64,000 bases of DNA, from the NCBI GenBank assembly GCA_963798845.1, contig CAWCUS010000004.1, positions 416,001-480,000 of the forward strand. Reading direction: 5' to 3'. Position numbers and translations under genes: made by a program. The stretch comes from an uncultured Gemmatimonadales bacterium (GTDB taxonomy: Bacteria; Gemmatimonadota; Gemmatimonadetes; Longimicrobiales; RSA9). Shown here in pieces: positions 4,138 through 47,917 of this stretch. The notes below the pieces were generated by a model. The model searched no databases and was not told where the DNA came from. It worked only from the letters and a program-made list of their open reading frames with translations. Each line of letters begins with the position of its first letter. Positions within the stretch are counted from its first letter, which is position 1.

Positions 4138-4151
4138 AGCCTGGAGCGCCC

Positions 4152-7307: not shown

Positions 7308-7346
7308 GTTCCGATGGGAACCGTGAACATGTTTTCCCATCGGAAC
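7308..7346. promoter_or_regulatory. Perfect 13-bp inverted repeat (probable PadR operator)
   Basis: GTTCCGATGGGAA (7308-7320), 13-bp spacer, TTCCCATCGGAAC (7334-7346), 15 bp upstream of the second padR start; TTGCGT -35-like box at 7304. Confidence 0.65.
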
Positions 7347-7361
7347 CCGAGGGAGAGAGCG

Positions 7362-7712: not shown

Positions 7713-7719
7713 GGTCGCG

Positions 7720-10401: not shown

Positions 10402-10465
10402 CACCGCCCCGACGGCACCTGCCGGACCTCACAGCGGGGATCGGCAACGCGCGGCTGCGGGCGGC

Positions 10466-24100: not shown

Positions 24101-24462
24101 TTCCCGTCGGGGGTCCACCCGCGCACCGCGTCCGGCCCGGGGTGCCACGTCAGGCGACGCGGCTCGCCTCCGTCCACGGGCTCCACGTAGACGTCGGGGT
24201 TCCCGCCGTACTGGCCGGTGAACGCCAGCCACTTGCCATCCGGCGAGAAGTGGGGGTCGCTCTCGACGGTGGGCGACGAGGTGACGCGGCGGGCATCGCC
24301 GCCGGCGCGCGGCGCGATCCAGATGTCGCCCGCGTACGCGAACGCCACGTGGCGGTCGCTGACGTCGGGCTGGTGGAGGAGGCGGGTGGACTGGCCCGCG
24401 GCAAGCGCGGGAACGAAAGCAACGGCAGTCGCCAGGACGGCCGGAAGCGAGCGCCACGACAT
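21125..24462 (-). CDS. Tricorn-like S41 protease (signal peptide, propellers, PDZ); 1-nt deletion frameshift at about 22886
   Basis: N-part in track ORF 22522..24561 (RLLHQPD..FAYAGDIW); C-part in ORF 21125..24457 (DERFNHGG, GSGGD, GTRTWGGLVG, ENEGVPPD). At the junction GGC AT TAC should read GGC ATC TAC (G-I-Y). Confidence 0.88.
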
Positions 24463-24614
24463 GGGCAGTTCCTCGGGGTGCAGGTTACCGGGGGTGGATT
24501 CCGAAGGATAAGCCCCGGAACGTGGACGCGGCAAACCGGAACCGCCACGGGAACCGCTCACCGGGCGAGCGGGAACCGGACGGGGGCGGCTCGGAACGTG
24601 CGCCGGGGGTGGGC

Positions 24615-25325: not shown

Positions 25326-25442
25326 GCGCAGGCCGCGGGTCGCAACGTGGCTCGACGGGCTGGTCAAAGGATCGCGTTTGCCGACGGTCCCCGGCCGCCG
25401 CATGTTGGGGCGCGCACTGAGTGATCCTCGGAATGACACGTG

Positions 25443-26780
25443 ATGCAACGCGAACGATCGCGCCGCCGCGGCGCATTGACATACATCATCTTCCTGCTCC
25501 TGTCCTGCGCGTTGGCCGCATGGCCGGCGGTGGGCGAGGCGCAGGCAGGCTTGCCGGCGGGGCTGCGCGTGTATCTGGATTGCCAGAACCGGGTGCCCGG
25601 CTGCGATTTCGACTACCTGCGCACCCAGATGGACTGGGTCGAGTGGGTGAGGAATCGGCAGGACGCCCTCGTCCATGCGCTGATCACCACTGACCCGACG
25701 GGCGGCGGCGGACGCGCCTACTCGATGAGCCTGATCGGCCGTGGCGAGTTCGAGGGGCGCTCCGACACGCTCCGGTTCGCCTCGCCGCCGGCGACCACGG
25801 ACGACGAGGACCGCCAGCTGCTCGCCCGCTGGCTGCGCATCGGCCTGGTCCCTTTCGCCGCGAGGACCGGGCTCGCGCCCGGGCTGGACGTCTCCTACCG
25901 CGGGGATGGCGCCGCCGTGGCCCGGGTCGAGGCGCACGACCCGTGGAACGACTGGGTGTTCCGGCTGCGCGCGGGGACCAGCCTGGACGGCGAGTCGCTC
26001 CAGCGGAGCAGCGAGGTGGAGGGGAGCATCGACATCAACAGGGTCACGCGCGAATGGAAGGTGGAGCTCGGACTCGAGGGGAGCTACGACGACAGCCGCT
26101 ACACGCTGGATGACGGGTCCACCACCCGTGCCCTGCAGCGCGCCTACCGCCTGGACGGCATGAGCGTGCGCGCCCTGGGGGCGCAGTGGTCGGCGGGGCT
26201 CGTCGGCTCGGTGAGCTCGTCCACCTACTCCAACCTGCGGCTCGCGGCGCGGGTGGCGCCCGGGATCGAATACGACCTGTTCCCGTACGACGAGTCCACC
26301 AGCCGGCAGCTGACTTTCCTCTACACCCTCGGACCGGCCTTCCGCGAGTATGACGCGGTCACGCTCTACGGCAAGACCGGGGACCGGATCCTCGACCACA
26401 CGCTGAACGTGGCCCTGGCGCTCAGCCAGCCGTGGGGCAGCATCTACTCCTCGATCGAAGGGCGCCAGATCCTGCACTGGAGTCCGGACGCCCCGACCGC
26501 CGAGGCGGCCGCGCAGGCGAGCACCGCGAAGTACCGGGTGACGTGGCGAGGCGACGTGGAGGTCAATCTCCTGCGCGGCCTCGCCCTCGACCTGCGCGGC
26601 CGCTACAGCCGCGTCCACGACCAGATCACGCTTCCCGCGGAAGGCGCGACGAACGAGGAGATCCTGCTCCAGCTGAGCGAGCTCCAGACGGACTACACGT
26701 ACCACCTGTCCGTCGGGCTGAGCTACACGTTCGGGTCGATCCACAACGCAGTCGTGAACCCGCGCTTCGACGCCTACTGA
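25443..26780 (+). CDS. Putative outer-membrane beta-barrel protein, unknown function
   Basis: Signal peptide, N-terminal Cys-pair domain (DCQNRVPGCD), amphipathic beta strands, C-terminal VGLSYTFG. Confidence 0.65.
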   Translation: MQRERSRRRGALTYIIFLLLSCALAAWPAVGEAQAGLPAGLRVYLDCQNRVPGCDFDYLRTQMDWVEWVRNRQDALVHALITTDPTGGGGRAYSMSLIGRGEFEGRSDTLRFASPPATTDDEDRQLLARWLRIGLVPFAARTGLAPGLDVSYRGDGAAVARVEAHDPWNDWVFRLRAGTSLDGESLQRSSEVEGSIDINRVTREWKVELGLEGSYDDSRYTLDDGSTTRALQRAYRLDGMSVRALGAQWSAGLVGSVSSSTYSNLRLAARVAPGIEYDLFPYDESTSRQLTFLYTLGPAFREYDAVTLYGKTGDRILDHTLNVALALSQPWGSIYSSIEGRQILHWSPDAPTAEAAAQASTAKYRVTWRGDVEVNLLRGLALDLRGRYSRVHDQITLPAEGATNEEILLQLSELQTDYTYHLSVGLSYTFGSIHNAVVNPRFDAY

Positions 26781-28382: not shown

Positions 28383-30071
28383 ATGAGCACCGTCGCAACG
28401 CCGAATGCGGGTCTGGACCGGGAAACGCTGGACCTGATCCTGTCTGCGATCCGGGACTTCTCGGCAGAGCACCTGCCGAAGGCGAGGCTGCTGGAGCTGG
28501 ACGCCAGCCACGAGTTCCCCGAGGAGACGATCCGGGCCATGTGCGGGGAGCTGGGCGTGCAGCTGCTCTTCATCCCGGAGGCGTATGGCGGGATGGCCGG
28601 CGGCGCGTTCGACGTGTACCGCGTGTGCGAGGTCCTATCGGGGATCGACCTCGCGGTGGCGACGGGGGTGCTGGCGACCTTCCTGGGCAGTGACCCGATC
28701 CTGTGGGGTGGCACGGAGGAGCAGAAGGCGCGCTGGCTGGGTCGCATTGCGGAGGAGGGGCTGCTGATGGCGTACGGCGCCACGGAGCCGGAGGCGGGCA
28801 GCGACCTGGCGGCGCTGCGGACTGTGGCGAAGCGGGTGGAAGAGGGCGGCGTCGTGGTCGGCTACCGGATCGACGGCGCGAAGATGTGGATCAGCAACGG
28901 TGGCTTCGCGGACCTGTACAGCATCCTGGCGCTCGCCCCCGGCGGCCCCACCTGGTTCGTGCTGGAGCGGGGAGTGGAGGGGCTCGGCTACGGGAAGCCG
29001 GAGGACAAGCACGGGATCCGGGCCAGCAACACGGCGGCGCTCTCGTTCGACGACGTGTACGTCCCGGTGTCGGACCTGGTGGGCGGAGTGGAGGGGCAGG
29101 GGCTGGTGCAGGCGCAGCTCGTGTTCGGGTATACGCGGCTCATGGTGGCGGCGTTCGGCCTGGGCGGCGGATGGGCGGCGCTGGACCGGGCGATCGAGTA
29201 CTCGAAGACGCGCATCCAGGCGGGCGGTCCGCTGTCGGAGAAACAGGGATACACGCACAAGCTGATCGTCCCGCACGCGTGCCGGCTGGAGGCGGGCCGC
29301 GCGTGCATCGAGGAAACGGCGATGCGGATCGACGGGGGAGAGGGCGCGCTGAACACGGAGGGCGCCATCGCCAAGTACATCGCCACGGAGGCGGGCAACG
29401 CGGCGGCGGACGCCGCGATTCAGGCGCTGGGTGGCTACGGTTACGTGCGCGAGTACGAGGTGGAGAAGATCCGCCGCGATGTTCGCATCACCACGATCTA
29501 CGAGGGCACGTCGGAGATCATGGAGATGACCATCGCCAGGGACCGCTGGCAGCAACACCTGAAGACGCGGGGCCAGCACTACCACGAGGAGGCGATGAAG
29601 CTGGAGGCGCTGGCAGCCACCACTCCGACGGTCGGCGCCGGGACGGTCGCCCTGGGGGCCCACGCACTCGCCGAGCTGCTGGAGTGCGCGCGGATCCAGC
29701 GCCTGACCCGCAGCCAGCACCTGCTGTTCCGCTTCGGGGACCTCATCGCGCGGCTGGAAGCGGCGGCCGCGCTGGCTCGCCGGGCGGCGCGGGCTGCGGC
29801 GGGCGGAATGGCGGACAAGGCCGTTCGTCGCCTGGGGCCTGGCGCTCTGGCGGCCGCGAGCCGGATCTATGCCCGGGAAGCGGCGCTCGCGGTGTCGTCG
29901 GAAGGGATGCGCTGGGCCGTGGGCGGAGACGGGGTGCCGCCGGCCGAGCTCGCCGGATTCCAGCAGTCGCTCCGTGTCGGGCTCATCCACGCGGCGCAGG
30001 CGGGGCTGGTGGCGGACATGGATGTCGTGGCGGATGCACTGTACGGTCGCAACACGAACGGAGTCGCATGA
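28383..30071 (+). CDS. Acyl-CoA dehydrogenase family protein with C-terminal extension
   Basis: YGATEPEAGSD, GAKMWISNG, KHGIRASNT, GGYGY..TIYEGTSEI; stop overlaps the PKS start (ATGATG). Confidence 0.92.
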   Translation: MSTVATPNAGLDRETLDLILSAIRDFSAEHLPKARLLELDASHEFPEETIRAMCGELGVQLLFIPEAYGGMAGGAFDVYRVCEVLSGIDLAVATGVLATFLGSDPILWGGTEEQKARWLGRIAEEGLLMAYGATEPEAGSDLAALRTVAKRVEEGGVVVGYRIDGAKMWISNGGFADLYSILALAPGGPTWFVLERGVEGLGYGKPEDKHGIRASNTAALSFDDVYVPVSDLVGGVEGQGLVQAQLVFGYTRLMVAAFGLGGGWAALDRAIEYSKTRIQAGGPLSEKQGYTHKLIVPHACRLEAGRACIEETAMRIDGGEGALNTEGAIAKYIATEAGNAAADAAIQALGGYGYVREYEVEKIRRDVRITTIYEGTSEIMEMTIARDRWQQHLKTRGQHYHEEAMKLEALAATTPTVGAGTVALGAHALAELLECARIQRLTRSQHLLFRFGDLIARLEAAAALARRAARAAAGGMADKAVRRLGPGALAAASRIYAREAALAVSSEGMRWAVGGDGVPPAELAGFQQSLRVGLIHAAQAGLVADMDVVADALYGRNTNGVA

Positions 30072-33000
30072 TGGACAGCAGCGCGCGCAGCAGGTCGGTG
30101 GCCATCGTCGGGGTGGGCGCGGTCCTTCCGGATGCGGCGGATGCGGCGGTCTTCTGGAGGAACCTGCTGGACGGTCGCTCCAGCATCCGGGAGGTCCCCC
30201 GCGATCGGTGGAACCCGGACCTCTACTACGACGCGGATCCGCGCGCGCCCGACCGCACGTATTCGAAGATCGGCGGCTGGGTCACCGACTACGAGTGGGA
30301 CCCGCTCGGCTGGCGCATGCCGATCCCGCCAAAGGTCGCGGCCGCGATGGACCCCACGCAGAAGTACGCCATCGCCGCGGCACGCCAGGCACTGCTGGAT
30401 TACGGCTATCCCGAGCGTCCGCTGGATGGGGAGCGCACGGCGGTGATCCTCGGCAACGCAATGGGCGGCGACCATCACCTCCTGACCAGCGCGCGCATCC
30501 TCTTCCCCGAAATGGCGGAGGAGCTGCTCGCTGCGCCCGCGTACCGCGCCCTCCCCGCGGACGTTCGCACTGCGCTCCTGGAGGAGCTGCGCGCCGGCGT
30601 CGGCCGCCGCATCCCGGACATCACCGAGGACACGATGCCCGGCGAGCTGTCCAACATCACGGCGGGGCGCATCGCCGCGCTCTACGACTTCCGGGGCCCC
30701 AACTTCGTGACGGACGCCGCGTGCGCCTCCGCCATGGCCGCGCTCTACGCCGCCATCGACGGCCTGGAGAACGGGGACTACGACGCCGTCCTGTCCGGCG
30801 GCGCGGACGCGAACATGAGCCCGTCCGCGTTCGTGAAGTTCTGCAAGATCGGCGCGCTCAGCGCCACCGGCTCGCGCCCGTACGCCGAGGGCGCGGACGG
30901 CTTCGTCATGGGTGAGGGCTCGGTGGTGTTCGTGCTGAAGCGGCTCGCGGATGCCGAGCGCGACGGCGATCGCGTGTACGCGGTCATCCGCGGCGTGGGC
31001 GGCTCCAGCGACGGCCGCGGCAAGGGGATCACCGCGCCCAACCCTGTCGGTCAGCAGCTGGCCGTGCAGCGCGCCTGGGCGAACGCCGGCCTCGCGCCCC
31101 GCGCGGGCGACCTGATCGAGGGGCACGGCACGTCCACACGCGTGGGCGATGTCGTGGAGGTCACGAGCATGAACGAGGTGTTCGCCGGCGCCGCGCTCGC
31201 TCCGGGCTCCCTCATGCTCGGCTCGGTCAAGTCGAACATCGGGCACCTGAAGGGTGCAGCCGGCGCAGTGGGCATGCTGAAGGCCGCGCTCTCGCTCCAC
31301 CACGGCGTCGTGCCGGCCAGCATCAACTTCGCCCGGCCGAACCCCGGGATCGACTTCGCCCGGGCCACCATGGCGGTATCGGCTGAGACCACCGATTGGC
31401 CGCGTCGCACGGACGGAACGGCCCGCCGCGCCGGCTTGAGCGCGTTCGGCTTCGGCGGCACGAACTTCCACGTGGTCATGGAGGAGTACGTGCCGGGCGC
31501 GGTGCCACGGACGCAGGTGCGGGGCGCTGGCGCGGGCGACACGGCCTCGGTCGGGACGGCCACCGCCGGCGGCGCGACCTCTCCCGCCGCAGGTCTCCAG
31601 CCCTCCGCCCGCCCCGAGGCCGCCTCGCCCGGGGCGCCGGCCCCGCCGCTCAAGGCCCCGCTCCGGGGGGCGCTCGTGATCGGCGGGAGGACCGAGGCTG
31701 AGATCGCGGGTCGCCTGAAGGGGGTGAAGGCGGAAGCCGAGCGCGGCATCGCCCCGCCGCCTGCGCCGCCCGCCCGGGCCGACCTCGACGCTCCCATCCG
31801 GCTCGCCGTGGACTACGGCGACGCCGCCGAGCTGGCGGATCTCGCGGGGCGGACGCTGGCGGCGCTGGAAGCGGGCGACGCCGGCCGCTGGCGCGCGCTG
31901 CGGAACAAGGGCGTCTTCCTGGGGCGGGGCACCCCGGGGAAGGTGGCGTTCCTGTTCACGGGGCAGGGCTCGCAGTACGTGAACATGCTGCGCGAGCTGC
32001 GCGACGTGGAGGCGATCGTCGCGGAGACCTTTGCCGAGGCCGACGAGGTCATGGGGCCTCTGATCGGCGGCACCCTCACCTCCCGCATCTTCATCGACGA
32101 CGCCGATGAGGCGGCCCTGGCGGCAGCGGAAGACGCGCTGAAGCAGACGGCGGTCACGCAGCCGGCGGTGCTGGCGGTGGACACGTCGCTCGCCCGGCTC
32201 ATGGAGGCGTACGGCATCGCGCCCGACCTGCTCATGGGGCACAGCCTGGGCGAGTACGGCGCGCTCGTGGCGGCGGGCGCCATGTCGTTCGGCGACGCGC
32301 TGAAGGCGGTCTCGGCCCGCGGCGACGCCATGACGCACCTGGCGATGGAGGACAACGGCCTCATGGCGGCCGTGTTCGGCGATGTCGAGCGGGTACGCGA
32401 AGTGATCGAGGGCGTGGACGGCTACGTCGTCATCGCAAACCTGAACAGCACGAAGGAGTGCGTGATCGGCGGCGCCACCGCCGCGGTGGAAGCGGCCATG
32501 GAAGCCCTGCGCGAGGCGGGAATGCGCGCGCAGCCGCTCCCGGTGAGCCACGCGTTCCACACGGAGATCGTGGCCCACGCCTCGGAGCCGCTGATCGAGG
32601 TGCTGAAATCGCTGTCGCTGCGCGCGCCATCGCGTCCCGTGGTGGCCAACGTCGACGGCGAGCTCTACCCGTCGGGCGACGATGCCGTCGTCCGGATGCA
32701 CGACATCCTCGGTCGGCAGGTGGGCTCTCCGGTGCAGTTCGTGAAGGGGCTCGGCACCCTCTACGACGCCGGCGCCCGCGTGTTCGTGGAGATGGGCCCC
32801 AAGCGCGTCCTCTACGGCTTCGCGGATGACGTCCTCGCCGACCGGGATGACGTGGTCGCGCTTTTCACCAATCAGCCGCGCAACGGCGACATCGTGTCGT
32901 TCAACCGCGCCCTCTGCGGCCTCTACGCCGCAGGGCTCGGCGCGGGCACCGAGGCGCTGCAGGCGACACTGCCTCCCACCCCGCCCGCTGCCGTGGAAGC

Positions 33001-36000
33001 GACCGCGCGCGAAGCCGCGCTCGCGCCTGCCCCTTCGGAGCCGGACCGCTACAGCGCGCTCGGGCGCATGTTCGCCGACTTCCTCGAGCGCAGCTTCGAG
33101 ACGTGGGCCGGAGGGCGCGGTCCGCGTCCCGTGCGCGTCGGGATCACGGGCGCGGCGCTGGGGCTTCCCGGCGGCGAGCGGGTCTTCGAGGAGCGGAACC
33201 TGGAGCGGATCCTGTCGGGCGAGGCGCTGATCCGGGCGGTCCCGCAGGCGCTGCGCGACGCCATGGCGGCCCGCCAGATCACGCGGCTGGTCAAGGGCAC
33301 GAACGGTGAGGCGAGCTTCGAGACCATCGACGACCCCGCGGACGTGATCAAGCTGGCGGGGCGGGGTGGCGAGCTGGACCTGGTGGAGGAGTACGGGTTC
33401 CCGGCCGACCGCCTGGAGTCCCTGGACCGGGTCACGCGCCTGGCCATCGCGGCCGGGCTGGACGCACTGCGCGACGCCGGCATCCCGCTGGTGATGCGCC
33501 ACAAGACCACCACCACGGGATCCAAGCTCCCGGACGGCTGGGCGTTGCCGGAGCCCATGCGGGACGACACGGGCGTCATCTTCGCATCCGCGTTCCCCGG
33601 CCTGGACTCCTTCGCCCGCATCATCGAGGGGTACCACGAGGACCGGGCGCGGCGCGAGCGGCTGGAGGAGCTGCACGCGCTGCGCGCGAAGCTGGCGGCG
33701 ACGGGGGCTGTGTCGGCCGTCCCGGAAGTGGACGCCCGCATCGCCACCGTCGAGGCGGAGCTGGAGGCGAACCCATTCAGGTTCGACCGCCGCTTCCTCT
33801 TCCAGGTCCTGAACATGGGGCACGCCCAGTTCGCCGAGCACATCGGCGCCCGAGGGCCCAACATCGGCACCAACGGCGCGTGCGCCAGCAGCACGCAGGC
33901 CACGGCGCTCGCCCGGGACTGGATCGCCGCCGGGCGGTGCCGTCGCGTGATCGTTCTCTCGGCCGACGACATCACCACCGACACGCTGCTCCCGTGGTTC
34001 GGTGCCGGCTTCCTGGCGTCGGGGGCTGCGGCCACGGACGAGCGCCTCGAGGACGCCGCTCTGCCGTTCGACCGGCGTCGCCACGGCCTGATCATGGGGA
34101 TGGGCGGCGCGGCGCTGGTGGTGGAGTCGCTGGACGCGGCCGCGGAGCGGGGCCTCGCGCCCGTCTGCGAAGTGCTGGGCACCGTGGTGGCCAACAGCGC
34201 GTTCCACGGCAGCCGCCTCGACGTCCAGCACATCGCCGCGGTGATGGAGCGGCTGGTCTCCGACGCCGAGCGGGAGTGGGGCATCGACCGGCGCCAGATC
34301 GCCGGCGAGACGGTGTTCGTGTCCCACGAGACGTACACGCCCGCCCGCGGCGGCAGCGCGTCCGCGGAGGTCGTGGCGCTTCGGAGGGTCTTCGGCGACG
34401 CCGTGGACCGGATCGTGGTCGCCAACACGAAGGGCCACACCGGCCACCCCATGGCCGTGGGGATCGAGGACGCTCTGGCCGTGCGCATGCTGGAGACCGG
34501 CGTGATCCCGCCGGTAGCGAACTTCCGGGAGGTGGACCCCGAGCTCGGGATGCTGAACCTCTCCCGGGGTGGAAGCCAGCCCGTCCGCTACGCGTTGCGG
34601 CTGGGTGCCGGCTTCGGGTCCCAGATCGCCATGAGCCTCCTGCGCTGGACACCGCCGCCCGATGGCGCCCGCCGTGCCCCGAACGACGTTGGCTTCCGGC
34701 ACCGGATCGTGGATCGCGGTGCGTGGGAACGGTGGCTGGCGGGCATCGCCGGCGCTCAGGTCGGGGAGCTGGAAGTCGTACGGCGAGTGCTGCGCGTTCG
34801 GAGCGGCTCGCCCGACAGGGGCGAGCGCGTGACGCCGCCGCTGGACGTGACTTCGACGGTGATCACGCCCGCGACCGCCGCGCAGGCACCGACTTCGAAT
34901 GCTGCTCCGCCACCACCGCTGCCCGAGCCGGTGCGCGAACGGGTGCTCGGGATCGTGGCCGAGCAGACCGGATACCCGCCGGACATGCTCGACCTGGACC
35001 TGGACCTGGAGGCGGACCTCGGCATCGACACGGTGAAGCAGGCGGAGATGTTCGTCGCGATCCGCGAGGAGTATGGCATCGAGCGAGACGAGAACCTGGC
35101 GCTGCGGGAGTACCCGACGCTGAAGCGGGCCATCGAGTTCGTGTACGAGAAGCGTCCCGACCTGGCTCCGGCCGTCAATGTCCTCGCGGCGCCGGTCCCG
35201 ACGACGAGCGGGGCCCCGACGACCGATGGGGTGCCGGCCAGCAGTGTGCCCCCGAGCACGCCGCCGCAGCAGGCGCCCGATCCGGTTCGAGCCTCGATCC
35301 TCCGGATCGTCACGGAGCAGACGGGCTATCCGGAGGACATGCTCGACCTGGACCTGGACCTGGAGGCGGACCTCGGCATCGACACGGTGAAGCAGGCGGA
35401 GATGTTCGCCGCGATCCGCGAGGAGTATGGCATCGAGCGGGACGAGAACCTGGCGCTGCGGGAGTACCCGACGTTGAAGCGGGCGATCGAGTTCGTGTAC
35501 GAGAAGCGCCCGGACCTGGCAGCGGCGCCCGCACCCGCTGCGACGGCCGCCCCGGCCCCCGAAGCGGAGGCTCCGCAGCCGCAGCCTTCGGAAGGCGGCG
35601 CCGCGATGGGCGCTCCGGCCGCGGCTCCGGGCGCATCCACGCCGGCGCTCGCGGCCGGCGACATGGCGGCCGCGCAGGCCATGCCGCGCCGAATCCCGGT
35701 GGCGCGTCTCCGACCCGCCACCTCCTTCTTCCGGGACACCGGTGTGGCCCTCGGGGAAGGGGACCGCGTCGTGGTGGTTGACGACGCGGCCGGCGTGGGG
35801 AGGTCCCTCGTCGCCAGGCTCCAGAAGCGCGGCGTGACCACGCTCGTGGTGGATGACGCCCCGTCCGCGGACGTGCTCGCCGCGCGGCTGACGGCGTGGC
35901 ATGCCGACGGTCCGGTCCGCGGCCTCTACTGGCTGCCCGCGCTGGACGTGGTGGACGACGCGACCCTGCGCGACCCGGTAGCGCGCAGGGAGGCGGTGCG

Positions 36001-38143
36001 CGCGCGCGTGAGGCTGCTGTACACGACGCTGAGGACCCTGTACGACGGTCTGGGCGCCGCGGGTACGTTCGTGCTCACGGCCACGCGGCTGGGAGGGCGC
36101 CACGGCTATGACGAAGAGGGTGCGGCCGACGTGCTCGGCGGGGCCGTGGCCGGGCTGACGAAGTCGTTCGCGCGCGAGCGGCCGGATGCGCTGGTGAAAG
36201 CCGTGGATTTCGCACCCGGGGCCAGGGCGGCGGAGCTGGCCGATGTCCTGATCGACGAGACGCTGCGGGACGGCGGCGCGGTGGAGGTCGGCCATGCCCT
36301 CGGCCGTCGGTGGACCGTCGGCCTCGAGGAACGCCCCGTCGAGCCGGGGAGTGCGCTGCCCGGCCGCAATGGGGTGTGGGTGGTCACCGGCGCCGCGGGG
36401 AGCATCACGTCCGCGATCCTCGGAGACGTGGCCGCCGGTGGCGGCGAGTTCTGGCTCCTGGACCTGACCCCGGAGCCGGACGCGTCGGACCCGGACCTGG
36501 CTCGTCTGAGCACGGACCGGGACGGGCTCAGGCGCGACGTGTTCGCCCGCCTGAACGCGGCCGGCGAGCGCGCGACTCCCGCGCTGGTCGAGAAGGAGCT
36601 GGCGAAGCTGGAACGCTCTGCCGCCGCCCTCGCCGCCATCCGTGCGGTGGAAGCGGCCGGTGGGACGGCGCACTGGCGCGCCGTGGACCTGCGGGATGCG
36701 GACGCGGTCGGCGCGGTGATGTCGGAAGTGGTGAGGTCGCGGGGCAGGGTGGACGTGCTGGTGCACGCCGCCGGTCTCGAGATCAGCCGGGCGCTGCCGG
36801 ACAAGTCGCCGCAGGAGTTCGACCTGGTGTTCGACGTGAAGACCGAGGGCTGGTTCAACGTCCTTGCCGGGCTCGGCGACGCGGAGCTGGGCGCCGCCGT
36901 CGTCTTCAGCTCGATCGCCGGCCGCTTCGGCAACGCGGGCCAGGCGGACTACAGCGCCGCCAACGACCTGCTGTGCAAGGCAGTCTCGTCGTTCCGGAAC
37001 CGGCGCCCGGACGCCCGGGGCGTCGCCGTGGACTGGACCGCGTGGGGTGGCATCGGAATGGCGAGCCGCGGCTCCATCCCCGCGATCATGAAGTCGGCCG
37101 GGATCGACATGCTGGAGCCGGCGGCCGGGATCCCCGTGGTACGCCGCGAGCTGTCGGCCGGCGTGCGCGGCGAGGTGGTGATCGCGGGCTCGCTCGGCGT
37201 CATGCTCGAGGAGAGGATCGCGGCAGGCGGGGTGGAGCATGCGGTCGCGGACGGCGCCGGCCCGATGACCGGCCGCATCGCCGGCTTCGGTGTCCACGAA
37301 GGCCTGGTGGTGGAGACGCTCCTGGACCCCGGGATCCAGCCCTTCCTGGACGACCACCGCATCGACGGCATTGCCGTGCTCCCCGGCGTCATGGGCATCG
37401 AGGCCATGGTCGAGGCCGCGTGCCTCCCGTTCCCCGGGCTCCGGGTGGCGGCGGTGGAGGACGTACGCTTCCTGGCGCCGTTCAAGTTCTACCGCGACGA
37501 GCCGCGCACCGTGACCGTCCGCGTCCACCACGACCTGGCCGGCGACGACGTCCTGGCCGATTGTGTCCTGCTCGGCACCCGCACGCTCCATGGCCGCCCC
37601 GAGCCCGAAGTCACCGCGCACTTCGTGGCCCGGGTCCGGCTCACCTCTTCGCCCGCCGACCCGCCGACCTCGCGGGCGCTGCCGCCGGCGGCCGAGACGA
37701 TCGGGGCCGACGCCATCTACGACGTCTATTTTCACGGACCTGCCTATCGCGTGCTCGGGGAGGCGTGGCGCGCGGGCAATGCGATGGTGGGGCGGCTCGC
37801 GAGCCGGCTCCCGCCGAACCACCAGCCGGCGACGCTCGCGACGCTGGCCTCGCCCCGCCTGATCGAGCTCGCCTTCCAGACTGCCGGACTCGTCGAGATC
37901 GCGGACGCGGCGCGAATGGGGCTACCCCACAGCGTGGACTCCGTGGTCCCGACCCGGCACGGGGACGGTGACCTGGAGGGCGCGGCGGCCCTGCTCCTCC
38001 CCGGTGACCCGGAGCGGGGTCACGACCTCGACGTGGTGGCGGCGAACGGAACCGTCCTGCTCTCGATCCGCGGCTACCGTACCGCGGCGCTCCAGTCGCC
38101 CGTGGCGGCCGGTGTATTCCCGGCGCTACGGGCGGGCGCATGA
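30068..38143 (+). CDS. Type I PKS/FAS-like megasynthase, KS-AT-KS-ACP-ACP-KR-DH (2691 aa)
   Basis: KS1 DAACAS/HGTST/KSNIGHL; AT GQGSQ/GHSLG/SHAFH; KS2 GACASS/HETYT/KGHTGH; two ACPs DLGIDTVKQ; KR TGAAGSI and YSAAND; DH HRIDGIAVLP. Confidence 0.92.
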   Translation: MMDSSARSRSVAIVGVGAVLPDAADAAVFWRNLLDGRSSIREVPRDRWNPDLYYDADPRAPDRTYSKIGGWVTDYEWDPLGWRMPIPPKVAAAMDPTQKYAIAAARQALLDYGYPERPLDGERTAVILGNAMGGDHHLLTSARILFPEMAEELLAAPAYRALPADVRTALLEELRAGVGRRIPDITEDTMPGELSNITAGRIAALYDFRGPNFVTDAACASAMAALYAAIDGLENGDYDAVLSGGADANMSPSAFVKFCKIGALSATGSRPYAEGADGFVMGEGSVVFVLKRLADAERDGDRVYAVIRGVGGSSDGRGKGITAPNPVGQQLAVQRAWANAGLAPRAGDLIEGHGTSTRVGDVVEVTSMNEVFAGAALAPGSLMLGSVKSNIGHLKGAAGAVGMLKAALSLHHGVVPASINFARPNPGIDFARATMAVSAETTDWPRRTDGTARRAGLSAFGFGGTNFHVVMEEYVPGAVPRTQVRGAGAGDTASVGTATAGGATSPAAGLQPSARPEAASPGAPAPPLKAPLRGALVIGGRTEAEIAGRLKGVKAEAERGIAPPPAPPARADLDAPIRLAVDYGDAAELADLAGRTLAALEAGDAGRWRALRNKGVFLGRGTPGKVAFLFTGQGSQYVNMLRELRDVEAIVAETFAEADEVMGPLIGGTLTSRIFIDDADEAALAAAEDALKQTAVTQPAVLAVDTSLARLMEAYGIAPDLLMGHSLGEYGALVAAGAMSFGDALKAVSARGDAMTHLAMEDNGLMAAVFGDVERVREVIEGVDGYVVIANLNSTKECVIGGATAAVEAAMEALREAGMRAQPLPVSHAFHTEIVAHASEPLIEVLKSLSLRAPSRPVVANVDGELYPSGDDAVVRMHDILGRQVGSPVQFVKGLGTLYDAGARVFVEMGPKRVLYGFADDVLADRDDVVALFTNQPRNGDIVSFNRALCGLYAAGLGAGTEALQATLPPTPPAAVEATAREAALAPAPSEPDRYSALGRMFADFLERSFETWAGGRGPRPVRVGITGAALGLPGGERVFEERNLERILSGEALIRAVPQALRDAMAARQITRLVKGTNGEASFETIDDPADVIKLAGRGGELDLVEEYGFPADRLESLDRVTRLAIAAGLDALRDAGIPLVMRHKTTTTGSKLPDGWALPEPMRDDTGVIFASAFPGLDSFARIIEGYHEDRARRERLEELHALRAKLAATGAVSAVPEVDARIATVEAELEANPFRFDRRFLFQVLNMGHAQFAEHIGARGPNIGTNGACASSTQATALARDWIAAGRCRRVIVLSADDITTDTLLPWFGAGFLASGAAATDERLEDAALPFDRRRHGLIMGMGGAALVVESLDAAAERGLAPVCEVLGTVVANSAFHGSRLDVQHIAAVMERLVSDAEREWGIDRRQIAGETVFVSHETYTPARGGSASAEVVALRRVFGDAVDRIVVANTKGHTGHPMAVGIEDALAVRMLETGVIPPVANFREVDPELGMLNLSRGGSQPVRYALRLGAGFGSQIAMSLLRWTPPPDGARRAPNDVGFRHRIVDRGAWERWLAGIAGAQVGELEVVRRVLRVRSGSPDRGERVTPPLDVTSTVITPATAAQAPTSNAAPPPPLPEPVRERVLGIVAEQTGYPPDMLDLDLDLEADLGIDTVKQAEMFVAIREEYGIERDENLALREYPTLKRAIEFVYEKRPDLAPAVNVLAAPVPTTSGAPTTDGVPASSVPPSTPPQQAPDPVRASILRIVTEQTGYPEDMLDLDLDLEADLGIDTVKQAEMFAAIREEYGIERDENLALREYPTLKRAIEFVYEKRPDLAAAPAPAATAAPAPEAEAPQPQPSEGGAAMGAPAAAPGASTPALAAGDMAAAQAMPRRIPVARLRPATSFFRDTGVALGEGDRVVVVDDAAGVGRSLVARLQKRGVTTLVVDDAPSADVLAARLTAWHADGPVRGLYWLPALDVVDDATLRDPVARREAVRARVRLLYTTLRTLYDGLGAAGTFVLTATRLGGRHGYDEEGAADVLGGAVAGLTKSFARERPDALVKAVDFAPGARAAELADVLIDETLRDGGAVEVGHALGRRWTVGLEERPVEPGSALPGRNGVWVVTGAAGSITSAILGDVAAGGGEFWLLDLTPEPDASDPDLARLSTDRDGLRRDVFARLNAAGERATPALVEKELAKLERSAAALAAIRAVEAAGGTAHWRAVDLRDADAVGAVMSEVVRSRGRVDVLVHAAGLEISRALPDKSPQEFDLVFDVKTEGWFNVLAGLGDAELGAAVVFSSIAGRFGNAGQADYSAANDLLCKAVSSFRNRRPDARGVAVDWTAWGGIGMASRGSIPAIMKSAGIDMLEPAAGIPVVRRELSAGVRGEVVIAGSLGVMLEERIAAGGVEHAVADGAGPMTGRIAGFGVHEGLVVETLLDPGIQPFLDDHRIDGIAVLPGVMGIEAMVEAACLPFPGLRVAAVEDVRFLAPFKFYRDEPRTVTVRVHHDLAGDDVLADCVLLGTRTLHGRPEPEVTAHFVARVRLTSSPADPPTSRALPPAAETIGADAIYDVYFHGPAYRVLGEAWRAGNAMVGRLASRLPPNHQPATLATLASPRLIELAFQTAGLVEIADAARMGLPHSVDSVVPTRHGDGDLEGAAALLLPGDPERGHDLDVVAANGTVLLSIRGYRTAALQSPVAAGVFPALRAGA
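34960..35522 (+). repeat. Near-identical duplicated ACP-coding segments (about 205 bp, 354-bp period)
   Basis: About 34960-35168 and 35314-35522 encode EQTGYPxDMLDLDLDLEADLGIDTVKQAEMFxAIREEYGIERDENLALREYPTLKRAIEFVYEKRPDLA with few nucleotide differences. Confidence 0.9.
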
Positions 38144-39000
38144 TGGCCGGCGCATCGTACGCGGGCGCCCGGGCCGGACCCACGTCGGGTGGCGGGGCGC
38201 CCCGCCTCCACGAGGTCGTCGCCCGCGAGGCCGACGTCCCCGCGGACGCCGGCTGGCTGACGGACACGGAGCTCCAGCTGCTGGTGGCGTTCCGGATACC
38301 GAAGCGACGGGACGACTGGCGGCTCGGCCGGTGGGCCGCGAAGCGGGCGGTGGCCGCCGCCCTGGGCCGCCCGACGGGGGCGGCGAGGCGGGGGATCTCC
38401 GCGGCCACCCTCGGCCGCATCGAGATCCTGAGGGCCGAGGATGGGGCGCCGGAGGCTCGGGTCGAAGACGTGGAGGCGCCCGGCCGCGCGCTGGCCCTGT
38501 CCATCAGCCACAGCCATGGCACCGCGTTCGCCGCGGCCGCCGTGGGCAGTGGCGCGCTGGGCGTGGACATCGAGGCCGTCGAGCCACGAAGCGACCGCTT
38601 CGTAGCCGATTACTTCACGGCCGACGAGGCGGCGCGCGTCCGCGCCGCGTCGGCCGCCGATCGCCCGCTCCTCGCGAACCTCACGTGGGCGGCCAAGGAA
38701 GCGGCCCTGAAGGCGCTGCGCACCGGACTGCGCCTGGACACCCGCGCCGTGGTGGTGGAGCGGATCGGGGCGGCCGAGTTCACCGTCAGGATGCCCGGCG
38801 GCGCGTGCTGGGACGGGTCCTGGTGCGAGGCGGACGGGCTGGTCCGGACCATCCTCTGGGCTCCGGTGTCCGCCTCCAGGGCCGCCGACGCGGGCGAGGC
38901 GCAGGACAAGGCCTGGCCCTCGCGGTCGGCCCCGGATGGCCGCTGGTCGATCGTGGACGACAGGTCGCACAGGAGTCCCACTGCTCCCGAGCTGGCGTAG
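38140..39000 (+). CDS. Sfp-type 4'-phosphopantetheinyl transferase
   Basis: WRLGRWAAK, LSISHS, GVDIE, WAAKEAALKA; ATGA overlap with the PKS stop. Confidence 0.9.
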   Translation: MMAGASYAGARAGPTSGGGAPRLHEVVAREADVPADAGWLTDTELQLLVAFRIPKRRDDWRLGRWAAKRAVAAALGRPTGAARRGISAATLGRIEILRAEDGAPEARVEDVEAPGRALALSISHSHGTAFAAAAVGSGALGVDIEAVEPRSDRFVADYFTADEAARVRAASAADRPLLANLTWAAKEAALKALRTGLRLDTRAVVVERIGAAEFTVRMPGGACWDGSWCEADGLVRTILWAPVSASRAADAGEAQDKAWPSRSAPDGRWSIVDDRSHRSPTAPELA

Positions 39001-39143: not shown

Positions 39144-42100
39144 ATGATGAGGTCGAACCGGATCGGAGTCGCCGCCCCAGGGGCCGCCGCGACTCCGCTT
39201 CTCGTTGCGGCGCTGCTGGTCCTGGGCGGCGCGAGCTCGCTGGCTGCGCAGACCAGGCTGCTGCGCTTCCCCGACATCCACGGCGACCAGGTGGTCTTCA
39301 CCTACGCGGGGGACCTCTGGACCGCCGGCTCCGACGGCGGCACGGCCGTGCGCCTGACCGCCCACCCGGGGCAGGAGCTGTTCGCCAAGTACTCGCCCGA
39401 TGGCAGGTGGATCGCGTTCACCGGGCAGTACGACGGCGATGAGCAGGTCTACGTCGTGCCCGCCGGGGGCGGCGTCCCGAAGCAGCTCACCTACTACCCG
39501 GCACAGGGTCCGCTCCCGCCGCGCTGGGGCTACGACAACCAGGTCTACGGGTGGACCCCGGACGGGAAGGGGATCCTCTTCCGCTCGATGCGAGACAGCT
39601 GGGACCTGGCGAACCAGCACCTCTACGTGATCTCGATGGACGGGGGGCTGCCGCAGCAGCTGCCGATGCCGCGCGCGGGTGCGGGGACGCTGTCGCCGGA
39701 CGGGAAGACCGTCTTCTACTCGCCGCTCTTCCGCGATTTCCGCGCGTGGAAGCGTTACCAGGGCGGCTGGGCCGAGGACCTGTGGACGTTCGATCTGGCG
39801 AGTCACGAGGCGAAGAACCTGACGGACGACGTGCGCACCGACCGCGACCCCATGTGGATCGGCGGCCGCCTCTATTTCGCCTCGGACCGCACGGGCACGC
39901 TCAACCTCTACTCGATGGCCGCGGATGGCGGCGACCTGAAGCAGCTCACCAGGAGCACGAGCTGGGACGTGCGCTGGCCCAGCGCTTCCGAGGACGGGCA
40001 GATCGTCTACGAGATGGGCGGCGAGCTGCACGTGTTCGACTCCGCTTCCGCCGCGGACCGCAAGCTGGACATCCGGGTCCCCGATGACGGCGTGGCCTGG
40101 CGTCCCGTGCACAAGAGTGTCTCCCGGTGGGTCGAGGACTTCGGCCTCGCCCCCAAGGGGCAGCGCGCGGTCTTCATCGCCCGGGGCGACCTCTTCACCG
40201 CTCCCATCGAGCACGGCGCCACGCGCAACCTTACCCACAGCTCCACCTCGCACGAGAAGGGCGCGGCCTGGTCCCCGGACGGCCGCAGGATCGCATTCAT
40301 CTCCGACCGCTCGGGCGAAGAGGAGCTCTACCTGGTCGACCAGGACGGATCCGGAGAGCCGGAACAGCTCACGTCCGACGGCGACGTCATGCGCTACGGC
40401 CCGCAGTGGGCGCCCGACGGCAAGAAGCTGTCGTTCTCCGACGCCCGCGGACGGCTGTGGGTCCTGGACCTCGCCAGCCGGAAGAGCACGCTCGTCGCCC
40501 GTGACTCCAGCGGTCGGCTGTTCGACCAGAGCTGGTCGAACGACGGGCGCTGGCTGGCCTTCTCCCTCAATGACGCCGCCGGGTTCCGATCGCTCTACAT
40601 CTGGGGCGTGGGCGAGGACGCGCCGCACCGTGTCACGAGCGACCTCACCAACGACTACGAGCCCGTCTTCGGCGCCGACGGCGACTACCTCTACTTCCTC
40701 AGCGACCGCGAGTACGCGCCGCAGATCAGCAACGCGGAGTGGAGCTTCGCCACGACGAAGAGCACGGGCATCTTCGCGCTGGCACTGCGCAAGGACGTCC
40801 CCGCGCCCTTCCCGCCGCAGAGCGACGAGGTCGAGGTGGCCGGTGCCGATGAGGCACCCGCGAAGGCCGGCAGCGCGCCGGAGAAGAAGGCGGCAGCCTC
40901 GCCGGTGAGCATTGAATTCGACGGCCTGGCAGACCGCTTGGCGCCGGTCCCCGTCGACCCCGACAACTATGGCGGACTCAACGCCGTGGAAGGGAAGCTC
41001 GTGTACGTGCGCGCGCCCGCGTTCTTCTACGGGCGCGACTCGGGCGACGAGCCGGCGCTGATCACGTTCGACCTGAAGGACCGCAAACCCTCCACGCTCG
41101 CCGAGGGCGTGCGCGGATACGCGCTGTCGCCCGACGGAACCAAGCTGCTCGCACGCCAGGGGCGGGGGTTCACGCTCTACGACGTCGCCAAGGGGGAAGG
41201 CTCCAAGAAGACCGTGTCCACAGACGGCCTCGAGGCCGACGTCGTACCGAAGCAGGAGTGGAACGAGATCTACGACGAGGTCTGGCGCCGGTTCCGGGAC
41301 TTCTTCTACGTCCCGAACATGAACGGCTACGACTGGAAGGCGCTGCGAGAGCAGTACCGTCCGCTCCTCCAGTACGTGGGCGATCGCTCCGACCTCGACT
41401 ACGTCCTCAACGAGATGATCGCGGAGCTGAGCAACTCCCACACGTACATCTCCGGGGGCGACCACGACCTGCCCGAACGGGCCGACGTGGCTTTGCCCGG
41501 GGCCCGATTCGAGCTGGACCCGGAGGTTGGACGCTATCGCATCGCCGAGATCTTCCCGGGCGACAACGCCGAGGCGGAATACCGCTCGCCGCTGACCCAG
41601 GTGGGCGTGGATGCCCGCGTCGGCGACTACGTTCTGGCGATCGACGGCCAGGAGCTGAAGGCGCCCGACAACCCGTACCGGCTGCTCCGGAACCGGGCCG
41701 ACCACCCCGTCACGCTGACGCTGAACGGCAAGCCCGGCCCGGAGGGCGCGCGCCCGGTGTCGTTCCAGCCGCGCACGGCCGAGGACAAGCTCATCTACTA
41801 CGACTGGGTGAAGCAGAACCGCGAGCGCGTCGCGAAGATGACGGACGGCAAGGTCGGCTACATGCACCTGCCGGACATGGGCGCCGAAGGCATCCGCGAG
41901 TTCGTGAAGTGGTACTATCCGCAGATCCGCAAGGAAGGGCTGATCGTGGACGACCGCGGCAACGGCGGCGGCAACATCTCCTCCATGGTGATCGCGCGGC
42001 TCAGCCAGCAGCTCCTGGCCAGCGGGTACTCGCGCAACGACGAGTATCCGTCCACCTACCCCCGTGGGCCCATCTTCTACGGCTCGCTCGTGGCCCTGCT

Positions 42101-42461
42101 CGATGAGACGTCCGCCTCCGATGGTGACATCTTCCCCGCCATGTTCAAGCAGGCCGGTCTCGGCCCGCTCGTCGGCAAGCGGTCCTGGGGCGGCGTGACC
42201 GGCATCACGAACCACGGCCCGCTCATCAATGGCGGCACCGTCAACGTCCCCGAGTTCGGCTTCATCGGCGTGGACGGCTCCTGGATCATCGAGGGTCACG
42301 GCGTCGACCCGGACATCGTCGTGGACAACGACCCCAAGTCCGTGCTGGACGGGCGCGATCCCCAGCTGGAGCGCGCCGTCCAGGAAGTGCTGAAGGAGAT
42401 GAAGGAGAATCCCAAGCACCTGCCGGCCCGGCCGACACCGCCGGTTCGAACGGGGCAGTAG
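39144..42461 (+). CDS. Tricorn-like S41 protease (intact paralog)
   Basis: Signal peptide, RLLRFPDIHGD, RYQGG, DDRGNGGG, ASDGD, GKRSWGGVTG, EGHGVDPD; AGGAG RBS. Confidence 0.94.
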   Translation: MMRSNRIGVAAPGAAATPLLVAALLVLGGASSLAAQTRLLRFPDIHGDQVVFTYAGDLWTAGSDGGTAVRLTAHPGQELFAKYSPDGRWIAFTGQYDGDEQVYVVPAGGGVPKQLTYYPAQGPLPPRWGYDNQVYGWTPDGKGILFRSMRDSWDLANQHLYVISMDGGLPQQLPMPRAGAGTLSPDGKTVFYSPLFRDFRAWKRYQGGWAEDLWTFDLASHEAKNLTDDVRTDRDPMWIGGRLYFASDRTGTLNLYSMAADGGDLKQLTRSTSWDVRWPSASEDGQIVYEMGGELHVFDSASAADRKLDIRVPDDGVAWRPVHKSVSRWVEDFGLAPKGQRAVFIARGDLFTAPIEHGATRNLTHSSTSHEKGAAWSPDGRRIAFISDRSGEEELYLVDQDGSGEPEQLTSDGDVMRYGPQWAPDGKKLSFSDARGRLWVLDLASRKSTLVARDSSGRLFDQSWSNDGRWLAFSLNDAAGFRSLYIWGVGEDAPHRVTSDLTNDYEPVFGADGDYLYFLSDREYAPQISNAEWSFATTKSTGIFALALRKDVPAPFPPQSDEVEVAGADEAPAKAGSAPEKKAAASPVSIEFDGLADRLAPVPVDPDNYGGLNAVEGKLVYVRAPAFFYGRDSGDEPALITFDLKDRKPSTLAEGVRGYALSPDGTKLLARQGRGFTLYDVAKGEGSKKTVSTDGLEADVVPKQEWNEIYDEVWRRFRDFFYVPNMNGYDWKALREQYRPLLQYVGDRSDLDYVLNEMIAELSNSHTYISGGDHDLPERADVALPGARFELDPEVGRYRIAEIFPGDNAEAEYRSPLTQVGVDARVGDYVLAIDGQELKAPDNPYRLLRNRADHPVTLTLNGKPGPEGARPVSFQPRTAEDKLIYYDWVKQNRERVAKMTDGKVGYMHLPDMGAEGIREFVKWYYPQIRKEGLIVDDRGNGGGNISSMVIARLSQQLLASGYSRNDEYPSTYPRGPIFYGSLVALLDETSASDGDIFPAMFKQAGLGPLVGKRSWGGVTGITNHGPLINGGTVNVPEFGFIGVDGSWIIEGHGVDPDIVVDNDPKSVLDGRDPQLERAVQEVLKEMKENPKHLPARPTPPVRTGQ

Positions 42462-46910: not shown

Positions 46911-47911
46911 TGCGATTTCCGCCCCATATCGTCACCGACAACATCCGGCACCAGGTGTCGAACGCCATGAAGGGGAACAGGCGCTATCCGTCTGTCCTGA
47001 TGCTGGAGCCGCTGTACACGTGCAACCTGGCGTGCGTCGGCTGCGCGCTGGAGCGGCACACGGGTAAGCTCTCGGATCGTGTGTCGGTGGAGCGCGCCCT
47101 CGGAGCCGTCGAGGACTCCGGCGCCCCTGCTGTGTCCATCTGCGGTGGCGAGCCCACGATCTACCCGGAGCTGCCGGAGCTGGTGCAGGGCATCATCGAT
47201 CGCAAGCGGCACATCTACCTGTGCACGAACGCCCTCATGCTGGACCGCCGCGTGTTCGACGTCATCCCGCCGCACAAGCGTCTGAGCATCAACATCCACC
47301 TCGATGGGATGCGAGACACGCACGATTTCGTGACGGACCGTGCCGGGGTGTTCGACAAGGCAGTCGAGATGATCAGGGAGTCCAAGGCGCGCGGCTATCA
47401 CACCCTCACGAACACCACGATCTACAAGCAGACGGACGTGGAGGAGGTGGAGGAGCTCTGTCAGCTGTGTGCCGGCCTCGGCGTCGACGGGATGATGATC
47501 GCGCCAGGCTACCACTACGAGTCCGTGGAGCGGGACGTGTTCATGGTGCGCCAGGAGATCGAGGACAAGTTCAAGCGCGTGCGCGAGTTCGCGGACCGCT
47601 ACCCGATCACGTCCACGCCCATGTTCCTCGAGTTCGCCGCGGGGCTGCGCGAGCTCGACTGCTCCCCCTGGAGCACCGTGACGTACACGCCGCGCGGGTG
47701 GAAGGGCCCCTGCTATCTCATCGGCGAGCGCTACTACGACGACTGGGAAGAGTTCTGGAACACCACCGACTGGCAGTACTGGGAATCCCGCCAGGATCAT
47801 CGCTGCCAGAACTGCAAGATGCACTCGGGGTTCGAGGCATCCGCCGTGCGTGAGGTGGCGAAGAGCCCGCGACACATGGCGAAGATGGCGCTCTGGCAGA
47901 TCTCGGCGTGA
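46907..47911 (+). CDS. hpnH: Adenosyl-hopene transferase (radical SAM)
   Basis: VLMLEPLYTCNLACVGC, GGEP, YLCTNA, RCQNCKMHSGFE; coupled to shc. Confidence 0.9.
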   Translation: MMRFPPHIVTDNIRHQVSNAMKGNRRYPSVLMLEPLYTCNLACVGCALERHTGKLSDRVSVERALGAVEDSGAPAVSICGGEPTIYPELPELVQGIIDRKRHIYLCTNALMLDRRVFDVIPPHKRLSINIHLDGMRDTHDFVTDRAGVFDKAVEMIRESKARGYHTLTNTTIYKQTDVEEVEELCQLCAGLGVDGMMIAPGYHYESVERDVFMVRQEIEDKFKRVREFADRYPITSTPMFLEFAAGLRELDCSPWSTVTYTPRGWKGPCYLIGERYYDDWEEFWNTTDWQYWESRQDHRCQNCKMHSGFEASAVREVAKSPRHMAKMALWQISA

Positions 47912-47917
47912 CTTCCC

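Follow-up and report, generated by a model that had tools for sequence, protein, structure and literature searches.

What is made by a large type I synthase with two ketosynthase (KS) domains that is encoded between an acyl-CoA dehydrogenase (ACAD) and a 4'-phosphopantetheinyl transferase (PPTase), and is such an arrangement new? The question is raised by positions 28,383 to 39,000 of a 64,000-nucleotide stretch of DNA (the window; contig CAWCUS010000004.1, positions 416,001 to 480,000) from an uncultured Gemmatimonadales bacterium. A prediction made earlier from the letters of this stretch had described the three genes as a candidate uncharacterised, iterative lipid pathway resembling fatty acid synthesis, which our results support, and had implied that their architecture was new, which they do not. 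The synthase unit is a genuine, intact and minimal member of a known family, the Type R secondary lipid synthases, a cluster type that was described in 2011, has hundreds of relatives and is without a published product; its architecture is not new.

Gene unit and domain composition

The genes of the ACAD (28383..30071, 562 aa; Pfam Acyl-CoA_dh_N, _M and _1), the Type R synthase (30068..38143, 2691 aa) and the Sfp-type PPTase (38140..39000, 286 aa; GVDIE at residue 141, WAAKE at 183, Pfam ACPS 140-217) all lie on the + strand and, as the original prediction had noticed, overlap at their start and stop codons, with ATGA at both junctions. They form a single Type R unit with coupled translation. 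A scan for promoters and terminators returned 0 promoter-like sites and 2 terminator-like sites, the latter against 1.9 expected by chance. A search for sequencing runs that contain this DNA listed no RNA run and a single DNA run, the latter with a share of 0.10 of the words.

The domain order proposed for the synthase, KS1-AT-KS2-ACP-ACP-KR-DH (AT, acyltransferase; ACP, acyl carrier protein; KR, ketoreductase; DH, dehydratase), was reproduced by a Pfam and NCBIfam domain scan, in which the Pfam spans were 9-421 for the first KS, followed by a C-terminal extension, 628-920 for the AT, about 1022-1575 for the second KS and 2411-2677 for the DH. KS1 (30092..31519, +) is a PfaA-type ketosynthase that matched the N-terminal part of the PfaA model TIGR02813 with 399.7 bits, and KS2 (33131..34792, +) is a divergent FabF-like ketosynthase. 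The AT (31940..32830, +; GHSLGE at 724, Pfam Acyl_transf_1 628-920) had been called malonyl-type from its HAFH motif, an assignment borne out by that motif at 828-831 and by a match to the FabD model (206 bits). ACP1 (34916..35170, +) was recognised as a PP-binding domain and ACP2 (35270..35524, +) as a second PP-binding stretch, with 149.6 bits on the family ACP profile. The KR (36365..37048, +; TGAAGSI at 2107, Y2295, Pfam KR 2183-2327) is colinear with positions 1883-2373 of the PfaA model, and the DH (37298..38098, +; Pfam PKS_DH_N 2411-2489 and PS-DH 2530-2677) is a double-hotdog dehydratase of the polyketide synthase (PKS) type with H2430 in an HxxxGxxxxP motif; this histidine (H2429 in the numbering of our alignment A1) is invariant in 15 full-length members of the family. 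No enoyl reductase (ER) or thioesterase (TE) family of Pfam or NCBIfam was matched in the ACAD, synthase or PPTase protein, in line with what had been predicted. The domain set of the synthase covers condensation, ketoreduction and dehydration, and includes no domain for enoyl reduction or chain release.

Assignment to the Type R family and distribution

The best NCBIfam model for the whole synthase was PfaA (TIGR02813) with 855.5 bits, which is under the curated cut-off of 1010.1 and compares with 2626 and 2521 bits for bona fide PfaA proteins; these references and the downstream KS-CLF-AT-FabA x2 proteins (CLF, chain-length factor) came from genomes of the class Gammaproteobacteria (G389 and G207). 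The model aligned KS1, AT, ACPs and KR-DH and skipped KS2 as an insert. KS1, AT, tandem ACPs, KR and the PKS-type DH are thus colinear with PfaA, whereas the extra FabF-like KS between the AT and the ACPs is not found there.

Such synthases were described as Type R by Shulse and Allen (2011, PLoS One 6:e20146, PMC3098273), whose Type R account gives one pfaA homolog with the order KS-MAT-CLF-ACP(3-6)-KR (MAT, malonyl acyltransferase) followed by a PPTase gene, names Ca. Koribacter versatilis, Ca. Solibacter usitatus, Elusimicrobium minutum and Roseiflexus spp. as carriers and treats the product as uncharacterised. The window unit shares with that account the single pfaA homolog, the order KS-MAT-second KS-like domain-tandem ACP-KR, the downstream PPTase gene, the absence of pfaB, pfaC and pfaD partners and the scattering of the family across several phyla; the acetyl-CoA carboxylase gene placed there between the synthase and PPTase genes of Koribacter has the same position in 42 of the loci analysed here. 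It differs in having two ACPs (one to six in homologs) instead of three to six, and the middle domain, labelled CLF in that account, is in the window a Cys-His-His FabF-like KS without detectable similarity to the CLF of PfaC. The DH, the upstream genes for the ACAD and the electron-transfer flavoprotein (ETF), and the threonine of the ACPs go unmentioned in the Type R account of PMC3098273. The original prediction had allowed that the architecture might belong to a characterised family with a known product; our literature searches returned neither a characterisation of the Type R family nor a publication giving its product, and the available passages of PMC13291983 and PMC11316326 hold nothing on the family.

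Of 8000 candidates scored against the KS2 region, 3508 proteins reached E <= 0.001, and each of the top 120 had E <= 1e-280; a KS2 profile matched 874 clusters (50% identity) at E <= 1e-30. Relatives of the synthase are encoded in 785 of 788 candidate stretches taken from GTDB genomes (one per species), and the best 78 of these 785 are the loci to which the counts below refer. Their synthases are 51-66% identical over the full length and come from Gemmatimonadota, Acidobacteriota, Calditrichota, Binatia, Verrucomicrobiia, Actinomycetota and Bacteroidota. The 15 full-length members mentioned above (the window synthase and 14 homologs) are 57-80% identical. Full-length relatives at 57-58% identity were found in metagenome-assembled genomes of Korobacteraceae and Bryobacteraceae (L086, L047 and L087), in a comparison that did not include the named Type R strains; those strains are likewise not among the rows of the quick IQ-TREE tree in which the 12 KS1 domains formed one clade (support 94).

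Closer to the window genome, the synthase was present in five of 40 relatives (G001, G007, G010, G014 and G019), all of the same family, which amounts to 5 of 24 same-family genomes and 0 of 16 genomes from two other families; the negatives include G016, G017, G020 and G026, which are flagged as unpublished. The KS1 and KS2 subtrees of the quick tree agree with each other, yet mix phyla: Binatia, Verrucomicrobiia and Acidobacteriaceae rows cluster together, and the Bacteroidota row is nearest to an Acidobacteriota row. Because the two subtrees are concordant while mixing phyla, they suggest that the synthase unit moves horizontally as a whole, and its patchy presence among same-family genomes fits this. 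Within the family, the window unit is an ordinary, minimal Gemmatimonadota member.

A FabF-like second ketosynthase

KS1 has the catalytic residues C219, H353 and H393 and is 39% identical to a bona fide PfaA KS (BLASTP, E 1e-115). Since its residues 10-484 are colinear with positions 8-472 of the PfaA model, the additional length of KS1 is a feature of PfaA. KS2 has the catalytic set C1272, H1420 (in SHETYT), K1455 and H1460, so that the earlier statement that both domains keep Cys-His-His (with C219 and C1272), KS2 with a HETYT motif, was recovered at the same positions. The Cys, His, Lys and His of KS2 are invariant in the 15 full-length members and in 25 KS2-only homologs. Whether KS2 might be inactive had been raised as a caveat; judged by these residues, it looks catalytically intact. 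Its first strand and its catalytic Cys are separated by about 250 residues, a stretch that we take to be about 90 residues longer than in FabF.

When KS2 was searched alone, its best NCBIfam model was FabF (135.8 bits, over the C-terminal two thirds only), and its best relatives in the PDB were FabF enzymes. By BLASTP, it matched the window genome's own FabF (32% over 305 residues, E 5e-28), barely matched the PfaA KS (E about 1e-5) and gave no match at E <= 1e-3 to two PfaC KS or CLF domains. In the quick IQ-TREE tree of 39 KS domains, the 12 KS2 rows grouped together with a support of 100, joined to the rest by a very long stem. Their clade branched next to FabF (99) and was separated from every type I KS and CLF domain (99), a placement to which long-branch attraction may have contributed. 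These results indicate that KS2 is a FabF-derived, apparently active ketosynthase inserted in a PfaA-like scaffold. A PfaC-type CLF was considered as an alternative identity and rejected: C1272 is invariant, and since KS2 matches FabF and not the KS or CLF of PfaC, and since the tree sets it with FabF, the CLF label is unsupported.

The partner acyl-CoA dehydrogenase

Seventy-two of the 78 loci have at least 600 bases of sequence before the synthase gene, and in every one of them an ortholog of the ACAD is the immediate upstream neighbour; the other six begin inside the synthase. The orthologs are 54-78% identical, with the C-terminal domain included in 65 loci. Among 41 related genomes, an ACAD match (E <= 1e-60) was found in exactly the six that have the synthase, adjoining it, and in 0 of the 35 others.

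The ACAD has two parts, a core (residues 15-390), in which YEGT contains the catalytic Glu374, and a helical domain at the C-terminus (about 399-554). All 30 orthologs compared keep Glu374, and conservation extends over the last 160 residues. An AlphaFold model of the protein (pLDDT 89, pTM 0.89) was aligned by Foldseek with 2z1q, 3owa, human very-long-chain acyl-CoA dehydrogenase (VLCAD) and ACAD9 over about 560-600 columns (TM 0.74-0.81); enzymes of the medium-chain (MCAD) type covered only about 385 columns. The ACAD core followed by a helical domain of about 160 residues and the catalytic Glu in YEG are thereby shared with VLCAD and other long-form ACADs (7s7g, 2uxw, 3b96, 8phe, 2z1q, 3owa), but sequence identity to them is only 22-28%. 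The core is closest in sequence to ordinary dehydrogenases of the MCAD, short-chain (SCAD) and Bcd type, being nearer to MCAD, Bcd and MmgC (33-38%) than to VLCAD, and the gene is tied to the synthase, unlike VLCAD, and not to beta-oxidation genes. Judged by its model, the ACAD is a VLCAD-shaped enzyme, and it is the invariable upstream partner of the synthase. By analogy, the VLCAD-like shape suggests long-chain substrates and perhaps an association with the membrane.

The best NCBIfam match of the ACAD was AcrC acryloyl-CoA reductase (234.8 bits, under the cut-off of 640). The acryloyl-CoA reductase AcrABC, Bcd-EtfAB (5ol2), the caffeyl-CoA reductase CarC-Etf (6fah) and CaiA with FixABCX are ACAD/ETF enzymes that reduce enoyl thioesters. 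The Type R family resembles them in that an ACAD-fold enzyme stands beside EtfBA in 46 of the 78 loci; in contrast to them, the window unit has no adjoining ETF and its ACAD is paired with a synthase of type I.

Threonine at the cofactor site of the carrier domains

Both ACPs of the window synthase read LGIDTVKQAE, with a threonine (Thr1655 and Thr1773) at the position of the phosphopantetheine serine, a feature that the original prediction had missed; the ACPs of PfaA read LGIDSIKRVE. HMMER alignments to PigH and to mitochondrial ACPs put this threonine exactly on the phosphopantetheine (DS) serine, the conserved cofactor Ser at the start of helix II in PF00550 is replaced by Thr in both domains, and the ACP1 core contains no serine. 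The threonine is invariant in 27 orthologous ACP1 domains and stands at the cofactor site of all 274 ACP domains from 75 loci. In a broader set of 121 ACP-bearing representatives (50% identity), it occupies 325 of 339 sites, the others being 11 Ser and one each of Pro, Asp and Gly; a single Type R representative protein holds five Ser sites. As controls, the AcpP of the host reads DSLD, and 16 of 16 ACPs of five PfaA or PfaA-like proteins read LGIDSIKRVE. That occasional family members carry Ser there suggests that the threonine position is still the cofactor site. Our literature searches found no description of threonine-linked phosphopantetheine. In a preprint (10.1101/2025.06.16.659903), the S36T variant of E. 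coli ACP is a cofactor-site variant that loses the ACP-IscS interaction.

We infer that the PPTase that travels with the synthase is specialised for a Thr acceptor. The window genome (G000, 96% complete) has only two matches to the PPTase family (PF01648), namely the window PPTase and one fused to a nonribosomal peptide synthetase (NRPS), and no AcpS-type gene was detected with PF01648 at E <= 0.001 despite the canonical AcpP, although it may be missing from the assembly. With only two PPTase matches and no AcpS seen, it cannot be claimed that the window PPTase serves the synthase exclusively. The fused PPTase is of the Sfp type and forms the C-terminus of a 2707-aa NRPS with the order C-A-T-C-A-T-TE (C, condensation; A, adenylation; T, thiolation), encoded elsewhere in the genome (L091, which is G000:C2:448000-462000; 2314-10434, - strand). 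A protein of the phosphoenolpyruvate (PEP) mutase family and a stand-alone A-T protein are encoded beside it, and this group might be a phosphonate-containing peptide cluster.

Pfa partners and type II fatty acid synthesis in the window genome

Genomes with polyunsaturated fatty acid (PUFA) synthases differ from the window genome, which has no PfaC (KS-CLF-FabA DH), PfaB or PfaD. The PfaD model had 0 matches in it and no second Pfa-type KS was found elsewhere in it, so that the absence of pfa partners, which had been noted for the window, holds genome-wide. The question whether the genome also lacks the genes of type II fatty acid synthesis (FAS II), posed together with the original prediction, received the opposite answer: it carries a plsX-fabH-fabD-fabG-acpP-fabF cluster. 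FabF-like genes were also present in all five other Type R genomes tested, three of them over the family cut-off. We considered the Type R unit as a replacement for FAS II and rejected this for the window genome, where the FAS II cluster is present. Together with the FabF genes of the five others, the cluster indicates that the unit is an addition to FAS II, not its replacement.

Extended clusters in other phyla

In 46 of the 78 loci, mostly from Acidobacteriota, genes for EtfB, EtfA and a membrane Fe-S protein (five predicted membrane helices, two 4Fe-4S motifs and a CCG domain) lie just upstream of the ACAD gene. A single-chain acetyl-CoA carboxylase of about 1880 aa is encoded between synthase and PPTase in 47 loci, and 16 loci start with an acyltransferase of the wax ester synthase/diacylglycerol acyltransferase (WS/DGAT) family. 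The PPTase gene was found in 60 loci, adjoining the synthase in 17, after the carboxylase in 42 and farther off in one; of the remaining 18 loci, 16 are cut short by a contig edge.

The Gemmatimonadota loci, that of the window included, have the three-gene core only, in unrelated surroundings (the flanks of five loci are unrelated to one another). The window genome has EtfBA and a gene resembling ETF:quinone oxidoreductase (ETF-QO), located elsewhere and not beside the unit, as well as one distant WS/DGAT. Neither an ortholog of the Fe-S protein (the best match is 22% identical) nor a multidomain acetyl-CoA carboxylase was found in this genome.

Proposed mechanism and its alternatives

Our preferred reading, which we put forward tentatively and as falling somewhat short of probable, is that the synthase builds fatty chains iteratively and that the ACAD, fed by ETF, carries out the enoyl reduction for which the synthase lacks a domain, so that the chains are saturated and probably long. 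The PPTase would load phosphopantetheine onto the threonines of the ACPs and the AT would load malonyl units. KS-A and KS-C of PUFA synthases divide elongation by chain length, and KS1 and KS2 would share the elongation cycles, probably in the same manner. In each cycle, KR and DH would give a trans-2-enoyl thioester, which the ACAD, working in reverse with electrons from ETF, would reduce. The ETF would be the housekeeping EtfBA in the window genome, and in Acidobacteriota a dedicated EtfBA tied to the quinone pool by the membrane Fe-S oxidoreductase. The product would be a saturated, probably long fatty acyl chain for membrane or storage lipids, made beside FAS II and not in its place. We propose the ACAD as an enoyl-thioester reductase acting in trans because of its strict linkage to the synthase, the ETF chain encoded in other phyla and the neighbouring carboxylase and WS/DGAT genes.

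Several points weigh against this proposal. ACADs normally oxidise, and the electrons of such oxidations, too, usually leave through ETF and a quinone-linked oxidoreductase, so that gene content does not fix the direction of the ACAD. Since the Gemmatimonadota loci have no adjoining ETF, Fe-S protein, acetyl-CoA carboxylase or WS/DGAT genes, the argument from electron supply rests on other phyla. Enoyl reduction could also come in trans from a separate FAS II reductase such as FabI, FabK, FabL or FabV. No release enzyme was identified at the window unit, and were threonine unable to take phosphopantetheine, the ACPs would have no activity and the entire proposal would collapse. The fuller version for the family is more doubtful: in it, phosphopantetheine would be carried on Thr through a dedicated PPTase, insulated from other PPTases and ACP hydrolases, and combined with enoyl reduction by a VLCAD-like flavoprotein that receives its electrons from the quinone pool through ETF.

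The main rival, which we regard as unlikely, keeps the ACAD oxidative. TcsD, FkbI and PigA are acyl-ACP dehydrogenases, and the ACAD could similarly desaturate an acyl-CoA starter or an ACP-bound intermediate, with electrons passing via ETF to quinone and enoyl reduction performed in trans by FAS II; this would yield a long-chain lipid that is unsaturated or modified in some other way. Its core is that of an ordinary MCAD/SCAD/Bcd-like dehydrogenase with the catalytic Glu, electrons classically pass from an ACAD to quinone through ETF and a membrane Fe-S oxidoreductase, and the prolyl-ACP dehydrogenase 4irn is among its PDB relatives; the FAS II cluster of the window genome and the FabF genes of all five other genomes tested are also compatible with this explanation. 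However, the ACAD is the most conserved partner of the synthase (72 of 72 loci), ahead of the PPTase in constancy of position, which would be surprising for a tailoring enzyme, and the Pfam lists of every family member examined lack an ER. PUFA synthases, moreover, carry PfaD and use no FAS II reductase in trans, as far as the account in PMC3098273 goes.

Two further explanations concern the chain itself. Cycles of KS, KR and DH with no enoyl reduction at all would yield a conjugated polyene or hydroxy-enoyl chain and leave the ACAD peripheral. The enediyne PKSE has the order KS-AT-ACP-KR-DH-PPTase, to which the present set of KS-AT-ACP-KR-DH and PPTase without ER or TE is similar, and KS1, KR and DH are of the Pfa/PKS type. 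We consider this distinctly improbable and less likely than an oxidative ACAD: the acetyl-CoA carboxylase (47 of 78 loci) and WS/DGAT (16 of 78) genes point to bulk fatty chains and neutral-lipid esterification, no enediyne-type accessory genes were seen in the flanks examined, and the strict linkage of the ACAD would be left unexplained. Least probable of all, and very unlikely in our opinion, is the suggestion of the original prediction that KS2 primes the synthase or joins two complete chains head-to-head, in the manner of the chain condensers Pks13 and OleA, to give a branched or very long membrane lipid. A second intact KS conserved throughout the family, with its very long branch and its unique insert of about 90 residues, could be so interpreted, but nothing in our results supports it: KS2 keeps the Cys-His-His-Lys set of decarboxylating, elongating ketosynthases, its nearest relative is FabF, its best NCBIfam matches are FabF-type (Pks13 is not among the 13 families listed), and the window contains no second loading AT, acyl-AMP ligase or Pks13-type extra ACP.

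Surroundings of the unit

The genes next to the window unit rarely recur at other loci: the MFS_3 transporter, a 446-aa open reading frame (ORF) and a Tricorn-like protease had relatives in 0, 1 and 1 of the 78 loci, respectively. The ORF (25440-26780) matches no Pfam family and has a single membrane helix, predicted at the N-terminus, and its relative (38% identical) lies upstream of the Type R unit in a Gemmatimonadaceae locus (L013). Large PD40/beta-propeller proteins flank the unit on both sides (22522-24561, - strand, and 39144-42461, + strand); the downstream one has Tricorn C1, PDZ and S41 peptidase domains, and its only Tricorn-like match was in locus L014.

A group of hopanoid and isoprenoid genes (44853-53173) follows 6 kb downstream and is not conserved beside the synthase in other loci. 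It encodes a squalene-hopene cyclase (44853-46910), an HpnH-like radical SAM protein with DUF3463 (46892-47911), an NAD-dependent epimerase/reductase (47912-48913), a protein with an FMN-dependent dehydrogenase fold (49449-50678) and a GHMP kinase (52037-53173). Other lipid genes were found beside the unit in other phyla: one for a ketoacyl-ACP synthase III (KAS III) directly upstream of the ACAD (L022:4715-5773), one for a fusion of an AMP-ligase with a PlsC acyltransferase (L016:17836-20721) and one for a CDP-alcohol phosphatidyltransferase (L064:4279-4893).

Implications for the Type R family

Type R synthases are very common among the bacteria of soils and sediments, and their product is still uncharacterised. 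Its architecture has been known since 2011; it is the VLCAD-like ACAD, the FabF-derived KS2 and the threonine carriers, all of them family-wide, that make the family worth experiment. An origin of KS2 from FabF makes the "CLF" label of the 2011 catalogue misleading. Threonine at the cofactor site of the carriers, if confirmed, would be a form of phosphopantetheinylation that is undescribed as far as our literature searches reach, and it would explain why a PPTase gene travels with the synthase. The obligatory ACAD, if its proposed role is confirmed, would possibly represent a new kind of trans-acting enoyl reductase, one that links lipid synthesis to the respiratory chain.

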